Positions 7,698 through 25,664 of a DNA stretch of 34,112 bases are shown piece after piece. Origin of the DNA: a virus (Duplodnaviria; Caudoviricetes); the IMG/VR virus record IMGVR_UViG_3300020042_004176, positions 1 to 34,112 of that record. One strand, given 5' to 3'. Below the pieces are notes generated by a model, which saw only the letters and a program-made list of their open reading frames with translations, was not told the DNA's origin and ran no database searches. Made by a program: the position numbers and the translations under genes. Position 1 is the first letter of the stretch. The number at the start of each line of letters is the position of its first letter.

Positions 7698-10600
7698 ATG
7701 GCGTGGACTCCCCCCAGCGATGCTGTAGAGGCGCAAGCGTCCTCTGATACTACCGCCAGCATGGGGTGGACTCCGCCTTCTGATGCCATAGTAGCCCAAC
7801 CTGCGGCCCCTACAGGCTGGACTCCACCCACCGACGCAGTAGTAGCAACTGCACCCAAACCCGTTGATACCCTCGACGCCAAACTTGCTGCGCAAGAGGC
7901 TAAACGCGCCCAGTTCGCCCCGGGCGAAGAGCTCAAAAAGGGTGTCATGAAAGCGGCCACCTCGGACTTGCCGTCCTTGTGGGAGCAGGCGGGGATCATG
8001 AAAGACGTTGGTGCTGCACTGACGGTCAAGCAGCGCATGGACCTATTCGACAAGATCGACAAGGGCGAGATCACCAGCAACGATCAACTGCGCGGGTTAG
8101 ATATGACTACGGGGCAGGGGCGCATGTACCTTGCCGCGCCTCCAGAAACACGCGATAAGCTCAAGGGTCGCCTGACTAACGAGCTGGCCAACCGCAAAGA
8201 GTTTGTGAAGGCGTCCATCGACACAATCAATGCGTACAAACAGCAGGCCAAGAAATACGCTCCTCGGGTTGAGAAAGCCTCGGACATTGGCTCTGTTACC
8301 GATTTCACAAACTTCGTAGCCAGTAACGTCGGCTCTGGTGCAGTTCAGCTTGTTCCACTAATGCTTGCTGCTGCTACAACAGGTGGAGTAGGTCTGGGCG
8401 CGATTGGTGTGGGTATGGGCACTTCTGAGGCTGTGGGCAACCGCTTGCAGTTTCTAGAGAAAGAATTGGCGCAACTTCCCCAAAATCAACGCGCCGACGC
8501 TGTCATCAACTACCTCGAAAAGACTGGCGGTACATCGCTGGCCGTTGGTGTTGTATCCGGTGCGCTCGACACGGTTCTTGGGCCTGCGGCAACTTTGGTC
8601 AAGCAGTTGGCAAGCAAAACACTCAAAGATCAGACACGCAAAGAAGCTGTCAAGGCTGCGGCAAAAGAAGTGCCCAAAGTCGTCGCAGGTGAAGCTGTCA
8701 CTGGCGGTGCCCAAGAAGCTACTCAGATTGCGGGTAAGGTCAATGTCGGCGAACGCAAGGAGTTTGCAACCAAAGAGACTCTGGTTGACGTGCTCAACGC
8801 CGCCGCTGCCGAGGCTGCGGGCTCACTTGCTGGTGCCGGTGTAAACGTAGGTACTGCCGCCCTTCGCGCCAAGGGTGCACAGCCAGAAGAAACCAAGGAG
8901 CGCATTGACCCCACTATGGGGGACATAGACCTCAAGCCAAAAGCACCCACTACTGAAGCTCGCACTGCTGATCTGGTTAAGAAGTACCGTGGCATGGGTA
9001 TGATGAAGGACGACGCCGAGATGCTGGCGCGTCGGACCGTTGCTGAGCAAGATGCAGAGGCTGCAAAAGCAGCCGAGACGGTCGTGGAAGAAACACCCGC
9101 CGAGACGACGCTTACGCCTACCGAAGAAACTCCAACTGCTGAAGTTGTAACTGAAGAAGTTGAAGCTGCGCCGACGCTGGAGTCACTCACTGCCGACCTC
9201 ATGGATCAAGGGTTGGCAGAAGATGAAGCGCGTGTGTTGGCGCAGATGCGCCTCGACAAAGAGAAGCCAATCGTCACGCAACCGACGCAAGCCCCGTCGG
9301 CAATCGTCAGCCGCGAAGCACCTCCGACGCTAGAATCGCTGACCACAGAATTCATTGACCAAGGACTGACCGAGGACGAAGCTCGCGTTCAAGCCCAACT
9401 GTTTTTGGATCGGAGCAAGAGTGCGCCAACTCAAGGGAGACAAGATGTTGCAAGACCTGACACAGAGCCAAGTGGAGTCAGCACTACAGTACCTGCACCT
9501 GCAACCGACAAACTTCCCACCGCCCGAAGCACTGAACCACCTCAACCAGATGGAATGGTTTCTACTCGACAGGATGCTGGCGTGCCTGCTGCAAGAGAAG
9601 GAAAGCAGCCAATTACAGTAACCTCAGAAGATCAAGCGCGTGCGCTTACGGATGAGCAGCTAGATACATTATTGGCCGAACACACGTTTGCGCGTGACGA
9701 TGATAACGAGTACAAACTTTTAAAGGCTGAACAAACTCGGCGTAAGCAACCAAAGTCAAGTGCACTGACTGAAGACAAAACCGCAGACGTATCTAGCACA
9801 CTCGATTACTTTGAGAAAAGGGATGCACTGATTAAGCAACTTGATGAGGCGAGTGAAGAAAGCTCGGCTTTGCTGGACAAAATGATTGACTTGGATAGTG
9901 TTCGCGCAGCAAGTGTTTTAGGTGCTGATGGCAAGCCGTTGGTTCTTGATGAGAACGGTAGATATGACTCAGACAAAAAATACGAAGCCAGAAAAACTCT
10001 AGAAGCTGAGCGCGATAAAGCCTCAGCTAAATTTGATGCTCTCATTAAACAGATTGACGAGTTGGATGCGGCTAGAGCTGCCGCAAGAGCTGCCAAAACC
10101 AAAACCGAAGGAACCACGACCGATGGCACTGAGACCACTGAAACCGTCCAAACAGAAACGCAAGAACAAAAAGCACCAGCAGCAGGAGGAGTAGCTCCGG
10201 CTAAGCCAAAACGCGGTCGGCCTGTCACCCTGACGCCGGAAGAAAAAGCGGCTACGGAAGCGGATAAGAAGGAAGACCGAGCTGCTCGCGGTCGGCATAA
10301 GCGTGCCGTTGACAAGGCTGAGGCTTCCCTTCAGAAAGCTATTACTCCTCTGGACGAAGGCGAGTTCGCCGACGACACCGAGTTAAAAGAAGCCCAAGAC
10401 GACCAGCGCTCCGAGCGCCGCAACGCCGTCAAAGAACTTCTGCGCGTATCTGAAGAGTCTGGCCTCAAGCCCGAGGGCAAGCGTGCACGTCAAATCCTGC
10501 GCGATGCAAAGATTCCTCAGACCGAGATCGACGACATCAAGCGTGGGCTAGAGCGTGCCAAGAAAGCACTTGCCGACAAGACCAACTTGTTAGGCCCAGC

Positions 10601-13600
10601 CTCGTCCACCGACCGCAAGGGTGCAGCAGTTACCAAAGCAGACCCGGCCTTTGCTGCGTTCAAAACTGGTGCACAGGCCATTGGCCACATCATTAAGACT
10701 GGCACCCGGTTTCAAAAAGCCATTGCAAAGCGCCTGCGTAACTTTGTGCGCGACGTTGAGTTTGTCGTGCTTGAGCAAGACTCAGAAGTTCCAGCTCAGC
10801 TCCAGCAAGCTAAGTACGCAGACCAATGGGAACGGTCACGCGCCCTGTTTATAGAGAACTTCAAGACCGGCAAGCGTGTGGTCTATGTGCGTGGCGCGTC
10901 GTTCGGCAACTCCCAAGGAGCCAACAACATCACCGTGCTGCACGAGTTGCTGCATGCTGCCACGGTCAAGAAAATTGCGCTGGCGCAGGAGTACATCAAC
11001 AAGGGCATCAACCTCAACATACCTCTGGTACGTGCGTATCAGGACCTGCTTGCCACCATGCGGGCAGCGCAGAATCGTCTGGTTGAGATGAGCGACAACG
11101 GTGAGATGACCGACGCGCTTGCCGATCTGTACGAAAGCACAGACGGAGACATCGTTGCAGACCCCCGTGAGTTCTTGGCCTACGGCATGTCGGAAGAGCA
11201 GTTCCAAGAGTTCCTGATGACTGCTGAGGGTGTGCAGGAAGACACATCGTTCTTCACCCGTTTTGTGGACTCCATCCGCCGCATGTTTGGCATGGACGAG
11301 TCGGACGTAAACGCTCTGTCTGACCTCATCATCGCCACTGACTCCTTGCTCACTTCCCGCATCCCTCGCGGTGATTCTCTGCCCGGCACAGGTCTTGTGT
11401 CGCAGCTCAAGAAGAAGTCGGCCAAGGTTTCTGCCGCCGAGCGCAAGCTCCTGCGCAGCAAAGACGCACAGGAAGTTGCCGAAGACATTGGCATCCTTAC
11501 GACCCTGCGCGACCCTCAGTTGCTTGTGGATACGCTCGGCGCTCTATGGGAGACTGCCAACGTCAACAAGCTCAGGGCCTTGCTGCCTGCGATCCAGACC
11601 AATAACTTGGTGGAGTGGGCACAGAACTTGGGCATCCCTGAGCTGGGCCGCACTTGGCGCATGAACCAAGACATGAGCGCAATGCGCAACAAGATGCTGT
11701 CTGCGTCTGCTGCCGTAGTGGACGAATGGCTAAAGATTCAACCCGGCATAATCGGCAAGCTGCGCGGCAAGAAGAACGAACTGACTGCTCTGGCCGATGT
11801 CATGCACTACTCGACCGACCAAAGGATCGACCCGACCAAGAGCACCAAGGACCCTGTGCTCAACAAGATGTGGAACGCCCTGAGCCCTCAAGCGCAGAAG
11901 GTCTACACAGAAGTCCGTGACTTCTATCAGGCGCAGTACGACCTGTACCGTGGGTTACTTGACGAGCGGATTGCCAATTCCAGCATCCCCGGCGATATAA
12001 ACGACCCAGATACTCCCAAGGGTCAGTTAATGGCGGAGATCAAGAAGGCGTACGAGAACGGCAAGGGCATGGCCCCGTACTTCCCTCTGATGCGCTACGG
12101 TAACTTCTGGGTGCGCGTTGGCAATGGTAAAGCCAAAGAGTTCTACATGTTCGAGAGCCAAGTGTCTCGGGAGCTGTTCATCAAGAAGCGCGTGCGCCAA
12201 TTGCAAGACGCTGGAGATAGCCGCACTGAAGCGCAGATGCGTGAAGACCAAGACCTCGACAGCGGTAACGAGCTGTCCGGCCTGCGCAAGTCCAGCATCG
12301 AGAACAGCACCATGCTCAAGAACATCTTTGAGCTGCTCGACGTGCCCGGAGCCAACCAAGACATTGATGCGCTCAAGGACCAGATATACCAGTTGTATCT
12401 GACCACGATGCCGGAGAACAACTTCCGCAGACAGTTCATCCACCGCAAGGGCACTGCTGGTTTCTCTGGTGACGCACTGCGCAACTTCATCACGTCGTCC
12501 GTGAACATGGCAAACCAGTTGTCGCGGATCAAGTACGGCTATCAGATGCTCAACTCCATCGACACTGCACAAGCGTCGCTAGATGGAAACCCAGATAAGC
12601 CACGGCTGGAGATGCTGGTCAAAGAGATGGGCAAGCGCGTTGAGATGGACGTGTATCCGCAAGTGGACAGCCCGTTCCTGAACACTGCAGCCAACTTCTT
12701 GAACAAGTCGGCGTTCCTGTACTTCATGACCTCGGTGAAAACTGCCCTTGTGCAGCTCTCGTCGTTGCCTATCTTTGTTGTGCCGGTGCTCATGTCACGA
12801 CATAACCCGTTGCAGGTGGCCAAGGAGATGGGCCGTTTCATGCTGGTCTACAACCAGTTCGGTGTGGTCAAAGACGGCAAGCTGGTGATGCCGACCATCG
12901 AGGCATCCAAAGAGATCAACATGAATGCGGACGAGCGTGCGGCCATTGAGGCTATGCACGACCGGGGGATTGCGGAAGTCACGCTGGCGTACGACTTGAT
13001 GGACCGTCAAGATAAGCCGACTACCAAGTACTCTAGTGCGTTCAACACTGGAACCAACTTGCTGGGTGCACTGTTCCATCACACCGAACGCCTCAACCGC
13101 GAAATCACATTTATGTCTTCGTTCCGCCTGAGCCGCAACGAGGGAATGAGTGTTGAGGACGCCATCGAGCAAGCAGTGAGCGATACGCACACAGCCCTCG
13201 GCAACTTTACTGCCCAGAACCGCCCACGGATCATGCGAGCCCCAGCCGGGCGCGTGCTGTTGCAGTTCAAGATGTTCCCGATGTTCTTGTCTACTTACCT
13301 GTTGCGTAACGGGTATCGTGCTACTGCGGGTATGGACGCAGCCGCAAAGAAAGAAGCGCGGATTCAGCTCATCGGCACAGTCACCATGTCAGCGTATCTT
13401 GCTGGTTACGTTGGTGTTCCCGGTGCGAGCATGGTGCTTGGTGCTATCCAAGCGTTTATCAATTCGATGCGAGACGAGGACGAGGAAGACGATCCGCTGG
13501 AGAAGCGCGACGTGGAGTTTTACATTCGGTCTGTGTACATACCCAACTTGTTTGGCGACTTGAAGATTGGCGACAGAAAGCTGGGTGAACTTTTAGACGC

Positions 13601-14309
13601 AGGTGCTCTTGACTCCCTTAGTGGGTACGCTATATCCAACAGCATGTCTATGAACAACATGTGGATTCCCGAACTCAAAGAGCAGAAGACTGCGCAAGCC
13701 ACGATGATGGACTACGCCATGTCTTTGTTGGGGCCAAGCGCAAGTCTGTACCTCAAGCAGTTTCCCGCCGCCTACGACGACTTCGCCGCTGGCAAAACGC
13801 TGCAAGGGTTTGAAAAGATGTTACCCGCCGCGCTGAGAAACCCCGTAGTTGCGTACCGCTATTCGCAAGAGGGTGCACGCACTGCAACCGGTGATGTGTT
13901 GAAACATGCTGACGAGTTCACCAAGGGCCAGATTTTTGCCCAAGCTCTTGGCTTTCGCACCGAGGGTCTGGCTGCTGTGCAAGAAGCAAACTTTAAAGCC
14001 GAAGCAATACGCCAGAAGGTCATCCAAGACAAGGGCGCAGTACGTGCCCGCCTTGACCGAGAGCTTGAGCTGGGCTCCGACGAGGGCGTGGACAAGGCAA
14101 TGGAGAAGCTGCTGAAGTTCAATGCTCGCAATCCACAGTCGGCGATCAAAGCAGACGAGCTGTCCAAGCAACTGCTCAACCGTGCCAAGCAACGTGCGAT
14201 GTCCGATCGCGGGTTCAAGGTGGATAAGGATATGTACCCCTACCTCGCCGAGCTGCTCGACTTGTCCCGTGAGAAGATTGAGCGGGAAGCTGCGAAGCCT
14301 GAGAAGTAA
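7698..14309 (+). CDS. Large polyvalent virion/ejection protein (2203 aa) with zincin-like HExxH metallopeptidase and PLxRFG-like domains
   Basis: HELLH at 10941-10955 with a downstream REFLAYG; YFPLMRYG at ~12078-12101; AT-hook-like KPKRGRP at ~10203; WTPPSDA x3 at the N-terminus; last gene of the structural operon. Confidence 0.8.
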   Translation: MAWTPPSDAVEAQASSDTTASMGWTPPSDAIVAQPAAPTGWTPPTDAVVATAPKPVDTLDAKLAAQEAKRAQFAPGEELKKGVMKAATSDLPSLWEQAGIMKDVGAALTVKQRMDLFDKIDKGEITSNDQLRGLDMTTGQGRMYLAAPPETRDKLKGRLTNELANRKEFVKASIDTINAYKQQAKKYAPRVEKASDIGSVTDFTNFVASNVGSGAVQLVPLMLAAATTGGVGLGAIGVGMGTSEAVGNRLQFLEKELAQLPQNQRADAVINYLEKTGGTSLAVGVVSGALDTVLGPAATLVKQLASKTLKDQTRKEAVKAAAKEVPKVVAGEAVTGGAQEATQIAGKVNVGERKEFATKETLVDVLNAAAAEAAGSLAGAGVNVGTAALRAKGAQPEETKERIDPTMGDIDLKPKAPTTEARTADLVKKYRGMGMMKDDAEMLARRTVAEQDAEAAKAAETVVEETPAETTLTPTEETPTAEVVTEEVEAAPTLESLTADLMDQGLAEDEARVLAQMRLDKEKPIVTQPTQAPSAIVSREAPPTLESLTTEFIDQGLTEDEARVQAQLFLDRSKSAPTQGRQDVARPDTEPSGVSTTVPAPATDKLPTARSTEPPQPDGMVSTRQDAGVPAAREGKQPITVTSEDQARALTDEQLDTLLAEHTFARDDDNEYKLLKAEQTRRKQPKSSALTEDKTADVSSTLDYFEKRDALIKQLDEASEESSALLDKMIDLDSVRAASVLGADGKPLVLDENGRYDSDKKYEARKTLEAERDKASAKFDALIKQIDELDAARAAARAAKTKTEGTTTDGTETTETVQTETQEQKAPAAGGVAPAKPKRGRPVTLTPEEKAATEADKKEDRAARGRHKRAVDKAEASLQKAITPLDEGEFADDTELKEAQDDQRSERRNAVKELLRVSEESGLKPEGKRARQILRDAKIPQTEIDDIKRGLERAKKALADKTNLLGPASSTDRKGAAVTKADPAFAAFKTGAQAIGHIIKTGTRFQKAIAKRLRNFVRDVEFVVLEQDSEVPAQLQQAKYADQWERSRALFIENFKTGKRVVYVRGASFGNSQGANNITVLHELLHAATVKKIALAQEYINKGINLNIPLVRAYQDLLATMRAAQNRLVEMSDNGEMTDALADLYESTDGDIVADPREFLAYGMSEEQFQEFLMTAEGVQEDTSFFTRFVDSIRRMFGMDESDVNALSDLIIATDSLLTSRIPRGDSLPGTGLVSQLKKKSAKVSAAERKLLRSKDAQEVAEDIGILTTLRDPQLLVDTLGALWETANVNKLRALLPAIQTNNLVEWAQNLGIPELGRTWRMNQDMSAMRNKMLSASAAVVDEWLKIQPGIIGKLRGKKNELTALADVMHYSTDQRIDPTKSTKDPVLNKMWNALSPQAQKVYTEVRDFYQAQYDLYRGLLDERIANSSIPGDINDPDTPKGQLMAEIKKAYENGKGMAPYFPLMRYGNFWVRVGNGKAKEFYMFESQVSRELFIKKRVRQLQDAGDSRTEAQMREDQDLDSGNELSGLRKSSIENSTMLKNIFELLDVPGANQDIDALKDQIYQLYLTTMPENNFRRQFIHRKGTAGFSGDALRNFITSSVNMANQLSRIKYGYQMLNSIDTAQASLDGNPDKPRLEMLVKEMGKRVEMDVYPQVDSPFLNTAANFLNKSAFLYFMTSVKTALVQLSSLPIFVVPVLMSRHNPLQVAKEMGRFMLVYNQFGVVKDGKLVMPTIEASKEINMNADERAAIEAMHDRGIAEVTLAYDLMDRQDKPTTKYSSAFNTGTNLLGALFHHTERLNREITFMSSFRLSRNEGMSVEDAIEQAVSDTHTALGNFTAQNRPRIMRAPAGRVLLQFKMFPMFLSTYLLRNGYRATAGMDAAAKKEARIQLIGTVTMSAYLAGYVGVPGASMVLGAIQAFINSMRDEDEEDDPLEKRDVEFYIRSVYIPNLFGDLKIGDRKLGELLDAGALDSLSGYAISNSMSMNNMWIPELKEQKTAQATMMDYAMSLLGPSASLYLKQFPAAYDDFAAGKTLQGFEKMLPAALRNPVVAYRYSQEGARTATGDVLKHADEFTKGQIFAQALGFRTEGLAAVQEANFKAEAIRQKVIQDKGAVRARLDRELELGSDEGVDKAMEKLLKFNARNPQSAIKADELSKQLLNRAKQRAMSDRGFKVDKDMYPYLAELLDLSREKIEREAAKPEK
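9445..9621 (+). CDS. Possible overprinted 58-aa protein in the +1 frame of the large virion gene
   Basis: AAGGGAGA RBS 4 nt before ATG 9445. Product MLQDLTQSQVESALQYLHLQP...NQMEWFLLDRMLACLLQEKESSQLQ has a helical pattern, while the host frame here is low-complexity P/T/S. Confidence 0.45.
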   Translation: MLQDLTQSQVESALQYLHLQPTNFPPPEALNHLNQMEWFLLDRMLACLLQEKESSQLQ

Positions 14310-18565: not shown

Positions 18566-18997
18566 TCACTTTTCCTTAGAACGTCTAACAGTCACGGTGT
18601 ATTCGCTTTCCACGTTCAAGCCCATGGGAAGCAGGTCGGGATTCTCAGAGAGGAAGTCCTTCATGTTGGTTTGATGAAGTCTCTTCTCCAACAGGCCAAA
18701 TGCACCTTGCTCTTTGATGAACTGGTACATCGAATCCCAATCATTCGTCCAATACCGCGATTTGACGGAACGAATGATGGTGCCATGTGGGGTGCGGATG
18801 CTGTCGGCGTCAAACTGTTTGCACACCTCAAGCATCCCGTTGCCGAGCAGGCTTTGCTGCTCTTCAAGGTCTTTGTCTTCGAGCTCAAACGTACGCTTGT
18901 TCTCGGCACGTTTGTCTCTGATTTTGATGTAGACCTCGGTTAGCTCGGCGAGTGTCTTTGTGTCGGGGGTGGGTTCCCCCTGAACGGTGTCGTCCAT
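18566..18997 (-). CDS. Hypothetical protein (143 aa, N-terminal coiled coil)
   Basis: Strong RBS AAGGAG; first gene downstream of the 19023-19050 promoter. Confidence 0.75.
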   Translation of the reverse strand: MDDTVQGEPTPDTKTLAELTEVYIKIRDKRAENKRTFELEDKDLEEQQSLLGNGMLEVCKQFDADSIRTPHGTIIRSVKSRYWTNDWDSMYQFIKEQGAFGLLEKRLHQTNMKDFLSENPDLLPMGLNVESEYTVTVRRSKEK

Positions 18998-20908: not shown

Positions 20909-21573
20909 CAGTCGCTCCTGTTGTGTTCACATTGTTTGACTGGGCAGAATCTGCACAGTGGCCCCGTTATGGGGTTCCACACTCCATTTTCCATTGCCGT
21001 TTCGATCCGAGCAAGGTCTGGGCGCAACTTGTCTACGTAGGCTTCTTTTAGCTCTACAACGTGTTCTGCGCGTACGAATTCTTTGCTAACTACAAACAGC
21101 AAAGCTGACTTGACCCGTGTAATCTTTGGGAACCGGGCGAATATGGCAGCGGCTACCAAGTCCAACTGCTGCTTGTCAGCGTAGCGAGCCGACTTGCTGG
21201 TTTTGTAGTCCACAGAATACGCAAGGCCCTTGGCCTCGTCGATCACGAGGAAGTCCGCAATGCCCCGCCACCACACATCGTCGGCATCGAACGCGCAGGG
21301 CTTGAGGTCTTTGGTCAGGCCAAGCTCCAGCTCTACATGCTTCTCGCCGGGTATGGCGGCAAGCGTATCCAGAAACGGCTGCATGTAGGAAAACTTCTCG
21401 GGTATCGGCGTGCCGTCCTTGACGAAATCCTCGGCGGCTTTGTGCACCGACTGGCCGTACATCGTAGCCACAGTGGGCGAGTCCTTGATGTCTTTGGCTA
21501 TCTTCAAGTGATAGTATTTCTTCGGACACTGTTGGAATGTCTTCAGGCTGCTGTACGACCATTTAATGCTCAT
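20908..21573 (-). CDS. Cas4-like PD-(D/E)XK exonuclease
   Basis: WSYSSL..QQCP at the N-terminus, G..VH, GIAD, DYKT and a C-terminal CRFCP..C (Fe-S-type Cys pattern). TAATG overlap with the polymerase gene. Confidence 0.85.
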   Translation of the reverse strand: MSIKWSYSSLKTFQQCPKKYYHLKIAKDIKDSPTVATMYGQSVHKAAEDFVKDGTPIPEKFSYMQPFLDTLAAIPGEKHVELELGLTKDLKPCAFDADDVWWRGIADFLVIDEAKGLAYSVDYKTSKSARYADKQQLDLVAAAIFARFPKITRVKSALLFVVSKEFVRAEHVVELKEAYVDKLRPDLARIETAMENGVWNPITGPLCRFCPVKQCEHNRSD

Positions 21574-23390
21574 TAACAATCTCCGTAACTTTTACCGAAA
21601 CCAGACTCGCAGTTTAGCGGGAGTTCGGGTCCCCACTTCGGCCTGACCTTCATGCAAACCTCGACGTACTCTTGTGCGCGTTCAACTTCCGCTTCGGGCG
21701 CAATGCAGGCAATCGCGTCATGCACCGTCATGACCACTTTGTATTTCTTGGCAACCATAAGCATCTGCTCACCGATGATGATTCGCGCAAGGGCTTGGCA
21801 CACGTTCTCCACCACCTTGCCGCCATAGATGCGGTTGGGGATAACAGCCTTGCCCTTCTTGGTGTCGTAGACAACTTCGGCTCTGCCTTGGTCGTTCTCC
21901 CACAAGCGGATGTTGGGGTACTTCAAGTGCAGGCCGTTGGGCAGTTGAACCCCTTTGCTGCCGTCAACCTTGAGCAGACCGCCTCGGCCAAATGAGGCTA
22001 CGCTGTTCTCCATTACCGCACGCAGAACATTGTTAGCCTCACGCCACAGCTCCGTTATCTTTGGATACGTAAGGCGATACGTGTCGATGATGCGTTTCGC
22101 TTCGTCCAGTTCGATGGACACACCGAAATTTTTAAGTTGGGCTTGGAACTTCGCAGCGCCCATGCCATAACCCGCGCCCAAGATTGTTGTCTTGCCGACA
22201 AAGCGCTCGTCTTTTGTGATCTTTTCGATTGCCTTGCCGTAGATAGCAGAAGCCATGATTTTGTAGACATCTTCACCCTTATCAAACGCATCGACAAGAT
22301 CGTCTTGCCCCGCAAGCCATGCCAACGTACGGGCTTCAATCTGCGATGAGTCTGAGTCAATCATCATGTAGCCGTTGGGGGCGAGAATGGCTCGCTTCAG
22401 CGGTGAGCTCCTTGGCAGATTTTGTAGATTGAGTTTATCGTCGCCGCCCCAACGCCCTGTGTGCGCAGCGTAATAGCGCAGTGGTACGGGCAGCTTGCCC
22501 CTTTCCGCAATGGAGATGAAACGCTCGGTGCGGGTCTCCTCCAGCGTAGACTTTACGCCCAGCCTAGCAGCCACAATTGCCTGCACTTGTGGGTCTTCGT
22601 GCTCAAGCAACGCTTTGAACTCTTCGTCGCTCTTGGCAAAAGCGAATGTCTCTCTGCCCGTGGCCGCGCTGATCTTGGTCGGTGGTGGTACGCCTAACAA
22701 TGTTAGCAAGTCGGCCAACTTTGGGTTGCTCATCAACGTGTCTTTGTCGTGGTCACCAAGCAACGCTTGCTTCTTATCGCGCACAGAGATGATGTGGTCG
22801 GCAAGGACTTTGGTGTCCAGCTCCAACGTGGGTTGTGTGTACATGCGCAGTGTCAGGTCAATCAGGCGCAGCTCCGCACCGGGGAAGCCCTGTGCCATGT
22901 GCTGAAACAATCTGTACGTCATGGCAACATCGTTCTTGCAGTACTCGCCGTACGTGGCTAGGTGCTCCGGTGTGAAGTCTGCCCGGTGGAATCCCTTGGC
23001 ATCGTTGACCTCTGTGCCCTTGACACCCACGTTGTAGTGCTCCGCAAGTGCCTTCAAGCTACCGCCCACCTCAGTGCCGTGCAGTGCACGCCCCATGCTC
23101 AGTGTGTCGAGCAAGCCCTTGGGGTGTATGTCAAACAGCCAGCCCATGATGGCCCCGTCGAACGCAGTGTTGTGCGCCAGCATCAACGAGTTCTCCCAGT
23201 CGTACTGCTTGAGGAACTTCTCGGTCTGCAACATGGAGCCGCTAAACCAGACTGGCTCACCGTCATCCTCCTGCACTGATACACCGATCACTTCAAACTC
23301 GGAGCCGCGCACGTACTCCTCAGTGGTCATGCGCGACAGGCTGTACTCGGTGGAGTAGTAGGTCTCGAAATCGAGGGTGATTATTTTCAT
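21573..23390 (-). CDS. polA: Phage family A DNA polymerase (3'-5' exonuclease + polymerase)
   Basis: ExoI LDFETY, ExoII AHNTAFD, motif A DSSQIEAR, motif B RFVGKTTILGAGYG, motif C VHD. Confidence 0.92.
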   Translation of the reverse strand: MKIITLDFETYYSTEYSLSRMTTEEYVRGSEFEVIGVSVQEDDGEPVWFSGSMLQTEKFLKQYDWENSLMLAHNTAFDGAIMGWLFDIHPKGLLDTLSMGRALHGTEVGGSLKALAEHYNVGVKGTEVNDAKGFHRADFTPEHLATYGEYCKNDVAMTYRLFQHMAQGFPGAELRLIDLTLRMYTQPTLELDTKVLADHIISVRDKKQALLGDHDKDTLMSNPKLADLLTLLGVPPPTKISAATGRETFAFAKSDEEFKALLEHEDPQVQAIVAARLGVKSTLEETRTERFISIAERGKLPVPLRYYAAHTGRWGGDDKLNLQNLPRSSPLKRAILAPNGYMMIDSDSSQIEARTLAWLAGQDDLVDAFDKGEDVYKIMASAIYGKAIEKITKDERFVGKTTILGAGYGMGAAKFQAQLKNFGVSIELDEAKRIIDTYRLTYPKITELWREANNVLRAVMENSVASFGRGGLLKVDGSKGVQLPNGLHLKYPNIRLWENDQGRAEVVYDTKKGKAVIPNRIYGGKVVENVCQALARIIIGEQMLMVAKKYKVVMTVHDAIACIAPEAEVERAQEYVEVCMKVRPKWGPELPLNCESGFGKSYGDC

Positions 23391-23623
23391 GTGGGGTCTT
23401 TCAGTAATTTCATCATGCCCGTAGCTGTTTCTTTGTCTATGCCTTTGGCTAGGGTAGTGCTCACGCGCTCACCATTACGGCTGTAGTCCCAGCGGTAGAC
23501 GGCGTACTTGCCTTTTTTGGAGCGCATGCTGTACTCGGTGCGGGGCTTTGTGTACTGCATACCAAACAAATTATTGAGTCCGGGCAGTAGCTCCTTGAGG
23601 AGTTGGGCGCGGCTTATTGGCAT
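23387..23623 (-). CDS. 78-aa protein whose N-terminus resembles a major capsid protein N-terminus
   Basis: RBS AAGGAG 8 nt upstream of ATG 23623; sequence begins MPISRAQLLKELLPGLNNLFGMQY; stop overlaps the polA start (ATGA). Confidence 0.7.
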   Translation of the reverse strand: MPISRAQLLKELLPGLNNLFGMQYTKPRTEYSMRSKKGKYAVYRWDYSRNGERVSTTLAKGIDKETATGMMKLLKDPT

Positions 23624-23916
23624 CCCATGCACTCCTTAATCACTGCTTCGAGGTGGTTGAAATTGGTCTCGTTGATAAGGCAGGTATAGCCACCCGCCTT
23701 GTTGATATCGCTGAGGTTCTTGAGTTGTAGGGCTGTTGCCATGCCCTTGCCTGCCTTGGCTTCAATAGCCACAAACTTGCCGTTCACGCAGCACAGGAAG
23801 TCAGGCACGCCGCTGTTGCCATAGCCAGTGCCGATGGGCATGGCGTAGTAGACGTTGTGTTCGGTCAGAATCTTTTTGATCTTGGCCTTGACCTTGGCCT
23901 CTGGTGTCGTTGCCAT
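23614..23916 (-). CDS. VRR-NUC domain nuclease (Holliday junction resolvase-like)
   Basis: TPEAKVK...GVPD...IEAKAGKG..TALQ matches the PD-(D/E)XK VRR-NUC pattern. Confidence 0.85.
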   Translation of the reverse strand: MATTPEAKVKAKIKKILTEHNVYYAMPIGTGYGNSGVPDFLCCVNGKFVAIEAKAGKGMATALQLKNLSDINKAGGYTCLINETNFNHLEAVIKECMGCQ

Positions 23917-25382: not shown

Positions 25383-25418
25383 GGTTTCTCCTTGGGTTAA
25401 AAAAGTGCTTCGGGTAAA

Positions 25419-25664
25419 TTAGTCGTTGGTTTCTTTCTTTCGACGGTAGACAGGTGCATCAAGTTCAACACCTTCGGGTCGGCTCGATCGAACGGCCACC
25501 ATGCGTTTGTCACGAGGGCGTGGAGTTGTTCCCGCTGCGACTTGTTCAAGCGAGATGAAAGTGTGGGTGTTGGCGCACTCTTTTCTTCGCCAGATTTCGT
25601 TGGTGTTTTCATCGGTTCGTGTCTCTAGTGTGCGTGTCCATGCGCCGCAGATTGGGCATTTCAT
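25419..25664 (-). CDS. NrdR-like N-terminal zinc-ribbon protein
   Basis: MKCPICG..TRTLETR...RRKEC..HTFISLE mirrors the NrdR zinc ribbon; no ATP-cone follows. Confidence 0.7.
   Translation of the reverse strand: MKCPICGAWTRTLETRTDENTNEIWRRKECANTHTFISLEQVAAGTTPRPRDKRMVAVRSSRPEGVELDAPVYRRKKETND

Follow-up and report, generated by a model that had tools for sequence, protein, structure and literature searches.

Why would a phage encode, among its replication genes, a small protein that begins like a major capsid protein? We examined this question in a viral record of 34,112 nucleotides (hereafter the window, meaning the whole stretch analyzed), which holds tail, ejection and replication genes and occurs in sequencing runs from fresh water; a host search for this virus returned one weak match only. 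The translation agrees with the original prediction of a 78-residue ORF that starts with 24 capsid-like residues (Table 1). The 5′ end of this ORF overlaps the final 10 nt of the upstream nuclease gene, for which we keep the earlier label VRR-NUC although its profile match is the phrog_93 endonuclease, and an AAGGAG motif lies 8 nt ahead of its ATG. This predicted ribosome-binding site (RBS) is sited in the coding end of VRR-NUC and persists in strains that lack the mimic gene, and thus was not captured from a capsid gene.

Table 1. Position and character of the mimic gene, its two parts, its RBS and its neighbors in the window.
Feature	Position	Strand	Description
Capsid-helix mimic gene, accessory	23387..23623	(-)	78 aa: copy of a capsid N-arm helix plus basic three-strand/one-helix carrier
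Capsid helix copy, residues 1-24	23552..23623	(-)	First N-arm helix of Mu-gpT-like/HTVC023P-type major capsid protein; predicted helix 5-25
Carrier domain, residues 28-78	23390..23542	(-)	Predicted beta-beta-beta-alpha, basic
Shine-Dalgarno AAGGAG of mimic gene	23632..23637	(-)	Within VRR-NUC 3′ end
VRR-NUC-type nuclease, upstream neighbor	23614..23916	(-)	phrog_93 endonuclease, E 5e-14
DNA polymerase polA, downstream neighbor	21573..23390	(-)	phrog_17, E 3e-88; start overlaps mimic-gene stop

The likeness of the N-terminal peptide to capsids had been proposed earlier, and searches bear it out: with residues 1–40 as query, 12 matches at E ≤ 1 were obtained among 15 candidates, all of them capsids. 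These longer proteins measure 283–310 aa, all 12 carry PF25209 and 11 also PF10124, and phrog_371 was assigned to the single capsid match tested; isolate relatives of the matched gpT-type capsid include the pelagiphages HTVC023P/027P and the roseophages CRP-901/902. An HMM built solely from capsid N-termini gives the mimic ORF 63 bits, compared with 7.0 for the best of 3000 shuffles. The capsid gene of this phage is absent from the 34-kb record, which is the entire assembly, and the DNA comparison suggested earlier was made with the capsid genes of four related genomes (G001, G004, G015 and G016). The window helix is identical to their capsids at 21/24 residues, with pS of 0.77–0.90 and pN of 0.10–0.12 over its coding stretch, meaning that silent sites are saturated. 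Judged by its sequence, the window helix appears to be an old capsid copy held at the protein level, and throughout the gpT-type capsid family this N-arm helix is almost invariant.

The mimic protein itself is not a capsid protein: it has no PF10124/PF25209 match, the HK97 body of ~300 aa is missing, and its gene sits between nuclease and polA, outside the head module, with the true capsid of relatives encoded elsewhere. No solved structure matching the gpT capsid by sequence was found, and the AF2 model of that capsid (23 sequences) reached a pLDDT of 39.9, at which the buried helix face is not readable.

Among 110 candidates, 108 proved to be homologues of the 78-aa ORF, 104 of them covering at least 95% of the query. 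Eighty viral loci were kept, 68 of which begin as capsid genes and 12 of which are the mimic gene; the latter all have the nuclease gene upstream, and 11/12 have polA downstream, the contig of the twelfth ending there. Uncorrected pN/pS is 0.25 for the helix versus 0.31 for the carrier (276 pairs, 24 distinct genes). The four related genomes named above, of which G016 is complete, each encode both mimic and capsid; the two share 13–19 of 22 residues, with pS at 0.79–0.93 in 4/4 genomes. Residues R5, L12, P14, F20 (100%), L13, L16 and Y24 are conserved in the family and for the most part form a single hydrophobic face. The relaxed positions are Q7, G15, N17, A18 and L/M22, which in capsids are fixed or nearly so. 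Mimics also retain E11 (81%) and acquire acidic residues at 7 and 17; changes at positions 7 and 18 are partly built in where mimic-type filters were used, while the conservation profile was made without that filter.

Capsid mimicry maintained by selection is supported by the conservation of the family, by the purifying selection that acts on the helix, by silent sites saturated relative to the capsid gene of the same genome, and by the presence of the helix on several unrelated tails, described below. An assembly chimera or one-off recombination remnant, which might be suspected because many of the short database entries with this capsid start are pieces of capsid genes, either truncated or joined to adapters, is almost certainly the wrong explanation: it is refuted by the 108 homologues, their synteny, purifying selection and exact gene pieces in two independent runs. 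The mimic family is real, under selection and, in the literature searched, undescribed, its function being putative. No isolate phage record matching the mimic protein was found. One contig of the family carries two differing mimic copies in inverted nuclease-gene-polA blocks (L096:8673-8960 (+) and 10210-10878 (-)), probably an assembly chimera of two strains. The polA of genome G010 (L396:7210-9573 (+)) is 787 aa long instead of about 605, which suggests an insertion such as an intein.

The helix also behaves as a portable unit. When 1.84 billion representatives were searched with a helix profile, 245 matches were obtained, and tails were counted in the best 150 of these; among 149 representatives, capsid fragments and adapter chimeras were set aside, leaving 48, of which 14 are doubtful (canonical capsid start). 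Among the matches listed, several groups of 2–6 proteins carry the helix on unrelated tails. A pattern built to exclude the capsid consensus found 16 viral stretches, all 16 being ORFs of 37–89 aa among replication genes: seven bear the window carrier and nine bear four other tails, the start of the 37-aa case being uncertain. The survey for the peptide on other C-termini, as proposed originally, therefore finds the gpT helix heading at least four unrelated short tails with its hydrophobic face kept; R5, P14 and F20 are invariant across them, and the shortest tails measure about 15–35 aa. Alignment scans for VEVDF-type and IGGN-type tails, dominated by capsid genes, yielded no locus for either tail type. 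A check of 10 genomes, of which seven are fragments, showed a single intact mimic copy in each. In G006 a stop-broken mimic relic occupies the nuclease-polA slot (G006:C1:25662-25832 (-)), and the intact copy, with a different helix type, lies elsewhere.

This different helix is the second one found upon the same carrier. Of 150 short carrier-bearing proteins, 110 start with the gpT helix and 10 with a P22-coat-type helix, whereas 30 have neither, some of the last being nearly carrier-only (46–53 aa). The resemblance of the second helix to the coats of the P22 family was tested with a motif. This occurs in 120 viral stretches, of which 68 are long ORFs, 44 run into the edge of their locus, five are mimics and three are interrupted coats. 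All four long ORFs tested match PF11651 from residue 1. A word-based search with the first 40 residues of a P22-type mimic found no match among longer proteins, and the P22-coat link was obtained through the DNA pattern scan. Neither helix type scores above 2.4 bits with the model of the other. The P22 helix HMM was built from coats chosen with a mimic-derived pattern, a circularity that inflates its bit scores. P22-type mimics belong to the same clade, in the nuclease-polA slot in L086 and G010 and farther upstream in G006 and G011.

The 19-kb fragment G011 contains an intact terminase-portal-GroES-scaffold-capsid module with a gpT-type capsid, 92% identical to that of G005, and has no PF11651 match; its mimic, in contrast, is identical to the N-terminus of a P22-family coat (L277) at 17/18 residues and matches another (L273) at 16/19 residues, with 11/16 codons differing. 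With a gpT-type capsid and a P22-family helix in one genome, the helix of G011 is foreign to its own capsid, and this is directly evident in the G011 fragment only. The synteny of G011 with G005 begins at the capsid gene, continues through the genes for scaffold, GroES, portal and terminase, and reaches the early genes. In G005 (98% complete) the capsid is likewise of the gpT type and PF11651 is absent; its mimic helix is degenerate and groups in a supported clade with members at 9–11 bits for the P22 type. Compared with its own head machinery, the helix is thus own-family in G001, G004, G015 and G016 and foreign-family in G011, the capsid gene of the window being missing. A carrier tree (49 columns, unrooted) needs two changes for the P22 label and gives no order of events. 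None of five near-complete phages with the P22-type coat motif carried the mimic family, in a search without a positive control.

Three apparent 48-aa P22-coat "mini-genes" were dropped, since the coat resumes after an insertion in two of them and the third locus ends first. These P22-family coats (L302:1483-3039, L311 and L356) are interrupted near codon 44–49 by a shared insertion of ~290 nt, after which the coat frame picks up again in L302 and L311; the insertion is possibly a group I intron. The GroES-like co-chaperonin of the clade's head module is encoded between portal and likely scaffold (L395:3617-4027 (-)).

An alternative is that the capsid start was simply recycled: the 5′ end of a highly expressed capsid gene would have been captured by recombination and kept as a generic amphipathic or dimerizing element of a small DNA-binding protein, without any role related to capsids. 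We consider this unlikely. The conserved residues do form one hydrophobic face and 30/150 carriers have a degenerate helix or none, both as it would have it, yet it leaves unexplained why R5, P14 and F20 are invariant over unrelated tails, why 16/19 foreign-coat residues are kept despite 11/16 differing codons, and why both captured pieces are the first helix of a capsid; nor is the RBS of capsid origin.

Strain comparison further constrains the role of the gene. In contigs that are ~98–99% identical to the window but lack the gene, found in 3/4 runs from three studies, position 23389 is joined to 23628 with five letters between. The indel spans the mimic gene and the RBS stays, where it would serve polA at the identical 8-nt spacing. 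One of the gene-less runs also contains, at lower depth, an exact 151-bp piece of the mimic gene, and in the fourth run an exact gene piece spans the polA junction. The sole RNA run has the gene-less form and shows no sign of mimic expression. Given its exact absence from such close strains in three studies, the mimic gene is optional, accessory and non-essential.

Of the three functions offered originally, a decoy for a capsid sensor fits best, although unproven, and this clean absence, along with the P22 helix in a gpT-capsid relative, weakens the other two, a cargo tag and a regulator of self-assembly of the phage head. In fact, the foreign helix, the optional gene and the unrelated short tails together argue against either a self-address tag or an essential assembly role. 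We therefore regard it as quite unlikely that the mimic is directed at the phage's own head, as an address tag loading the basic carrier into the prohead or as a brake on head assembly. Such a role would agree with the identity of 13–19/22 residues to the same-genome capsid in four genomes, and with a basic carrier bearing a weak likeness to DNA-binding arm domains; it is at odds with the departure of Q7, N17 and A18 from what is the consensus in capsids, the location among replication genes, and tails of ~15–35 aa that offer little to deliver.

The AF2 model of the 78-aa protein (mean pLDDT 88.7) predicts a helix at 5–25, three strands and a helix at 64–75, and residues 26–78 are basic (pI about 10, 13 K/R vs 6 D/E). 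The fold weakly resembles integrase arm-binding, DUF1508 and WGR domains: in the Atlas comparison the carrier reached TM 0.67–0.70 to integrase N-termini, under the naming bar, with feature matches all <0.9; its match to PF07935 (E 0.037) is below the cut-off, and the best Z in the VIA structure search is 4.6. Foldseek with the mimic model returned nothing at E ≤ 0.001 in PDB and BFVD, and no named family was assigned to the mimic protein by PHROGs, Pfam or PADLOC. In two further proteins, P0100 and P0103, for which no locus was found, the same carrier follows another N-terminal piece, whose match to DUF7483 is weak (E 0.008 and 0.047) and below the cut-off. As DUF7483 occurs in tail proteins, the carrier may here bear a third kind of virion fragment.

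What, then, might bind a free N-arm helix? The main rival explanation, possible though on balance doubtful, is scaffold titration, in which the helix would tie up the capsid-binding helix-turn-helix in the scaffold of a co-infecting phage, or the size-redirecting scaffold of a satellite, and spoil the head assembly of the rival. In the accessible part of the respective reports, the N-arm helix is the scaffold site of P22, with D14 contacting scaffold R293 (10.1101/2022.12.13.520362), and also that of 80alpha, where CpmB of SaPI1 competes with the scaffold (PMC5644958). Titration would directly explain a foreign P22-type helix and agrees with an optional gene; the retained E11 and the acidic gains at 7 and 17 fit as well, the clade's likely scaffold ending in a basic helix-turn-helix-like motif. 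It presupposes, however, a host shared with P22-like phages, and the 110/150 carriers with the nearly invariant gpT helix should poison their own assembly too. A complex prediction with the mimic and the last 50 residues of the likely scaffold (score 0.02, mark 0.32) gave no answer either way.

The best reading, which we advance tentatively and at somewhat less than an even chance, is that the mimic acts as a decoy for a putative host sensor of capsid N-arms. A small optional phage protein would display the first N-arm helix of the capsid upon a compact carrier and would be expressed along with the replication genes, before the late genes. The candidate host sensor would grip the hydrophobic face of the N-arm helix on capsid monomers of more than one family, and the mimic would occupy it ahead of real capsid synthesis, binding without activation because the remaining capsid fold is missing. 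A sensor of N-arms from several capsid families would explain the free helix, the optional gene, its placement among replication genes and the acceptance of either helix. The reading builds on features established at the level of sequence, namely homology, selection on the helix, the exchange of helices from two unrelated capsid families upon a single carrier, the foreign origin of one helix, and exact presence or absence between strains.

Several points stand against the decoy reading. The capsid sensors Avs7/8/10 and Sau-Thoeris sense surfaces other than the N-arm helix: as far as the available portions of these reports go, the A-domain is the part of the capsid that Avs7/8/10 bind, while variable extensions stay free (10.64898/2026.01.04.697583), and escape from Sau-Thoeris maps to the P-loop and E-loop of the capsid (PMC12578639). 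The N-arm helix has an established partner already, the scaffolding protein. Also to be weighed against the decoy are the RNA run with the gene-less form and the fact that a foreign helix is seen directly in one 19-kb fragment, with a degenerate one in G005. A broader formulation, in which the family forms a modular decoy platform of abundant freshwater phages, presenting own or foreign HK97 N-arm helices to a broad sensor or to rival scaffolds, is plausible, but we would not put it at even chances.

Capsids are immunity triggers that are hard to mutate, so that phage strategies for hiding them are an open question. A helix that is selected in an optional gene and swapped across two unrelated capsid families points to one partner recognizing both N-arms, which would be the scaffold of a rival or else a pattern receptor of a novel type. 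If the platform reading is true, the two interchangeable helices are ready-made baits for this partner, and two proteins of 76–84 aa with exchangeable helices make the partner hypothesis directly testable.

The mimic is not a demonstrated member of the DSAD1 family or of any named family, and no report of capsid N-arm mimics was found in the literature searched, which covered few subscription papers and included the accessible part of a 2026 anti-defence review (PMC13728456). Similarly to HK97-fold capsids (PF10124, PF25209, phrog_371; PF11651), the mimic has their first helix, with which its residues 1–24 are homologous, and its relatives carry the PF11651 equivalent. Unlike them it has no E-loop, P- or A-domain, comprises 78 aa versus about 302 or 410, is encoded among replication genes, and is relaxed at positions 7, 17 and 18. 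The T4 capsid targeting sequence of internal proteins, about 10 residues long and no copy of the capsid, is likewise a portable N-terminal peptide on unrelated small proteins; the mimic peptide differs in that it may derive from a foreign capsid and that some of its tails are too short for cargo.

The nearest functional parallel may be DSAD1 of SPbeta-like phages, which, according to the available part of its description, blocks the tail-tube sensor DSR2 via an overlapping site (PMC11087589). Both are small accessory phage proteins, the mimic being a proposed occupant of the virion-protein site of a host sensor. The sensor and effect of DSAD1 are proven in that account, whereas the sensor of the mimic is putative and the likeness is drawn by description; moreover, the mimic directly reproduces the sequence of a capsid helix, which is exchangeable between capsid families. 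The competition between CpmB and the 80alpha scaffold likewise centers on the capsid N-arm/scaffold contact, but in the part of the report available (PMC5644958) CpmB is encoded by the satellite and imitates the scaffold side, while the mimic is phage-encoded and imitates the capsid side.

Three further regions of the window deserve mention. The ORF at 18566-18997 (-) matches the phrog_13900 "minor head protein" (E 5e-21), a label that may be wrong, since the surrounding genes are replication genes and relatives conserve the ORF at this place. At 7698-14309 (+), a 2203-aa protein has a DarB-like antirestriction match in its C-terminal third; its N-terminal part has no assignment and is only ~31% identical in relatives. 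Finally, two overlapping ORFs in different frames at 25397-25664 (-) both match L001 (80–83%) and L097 (54–62%), double-frame matches that may reflect DNA similarity only.
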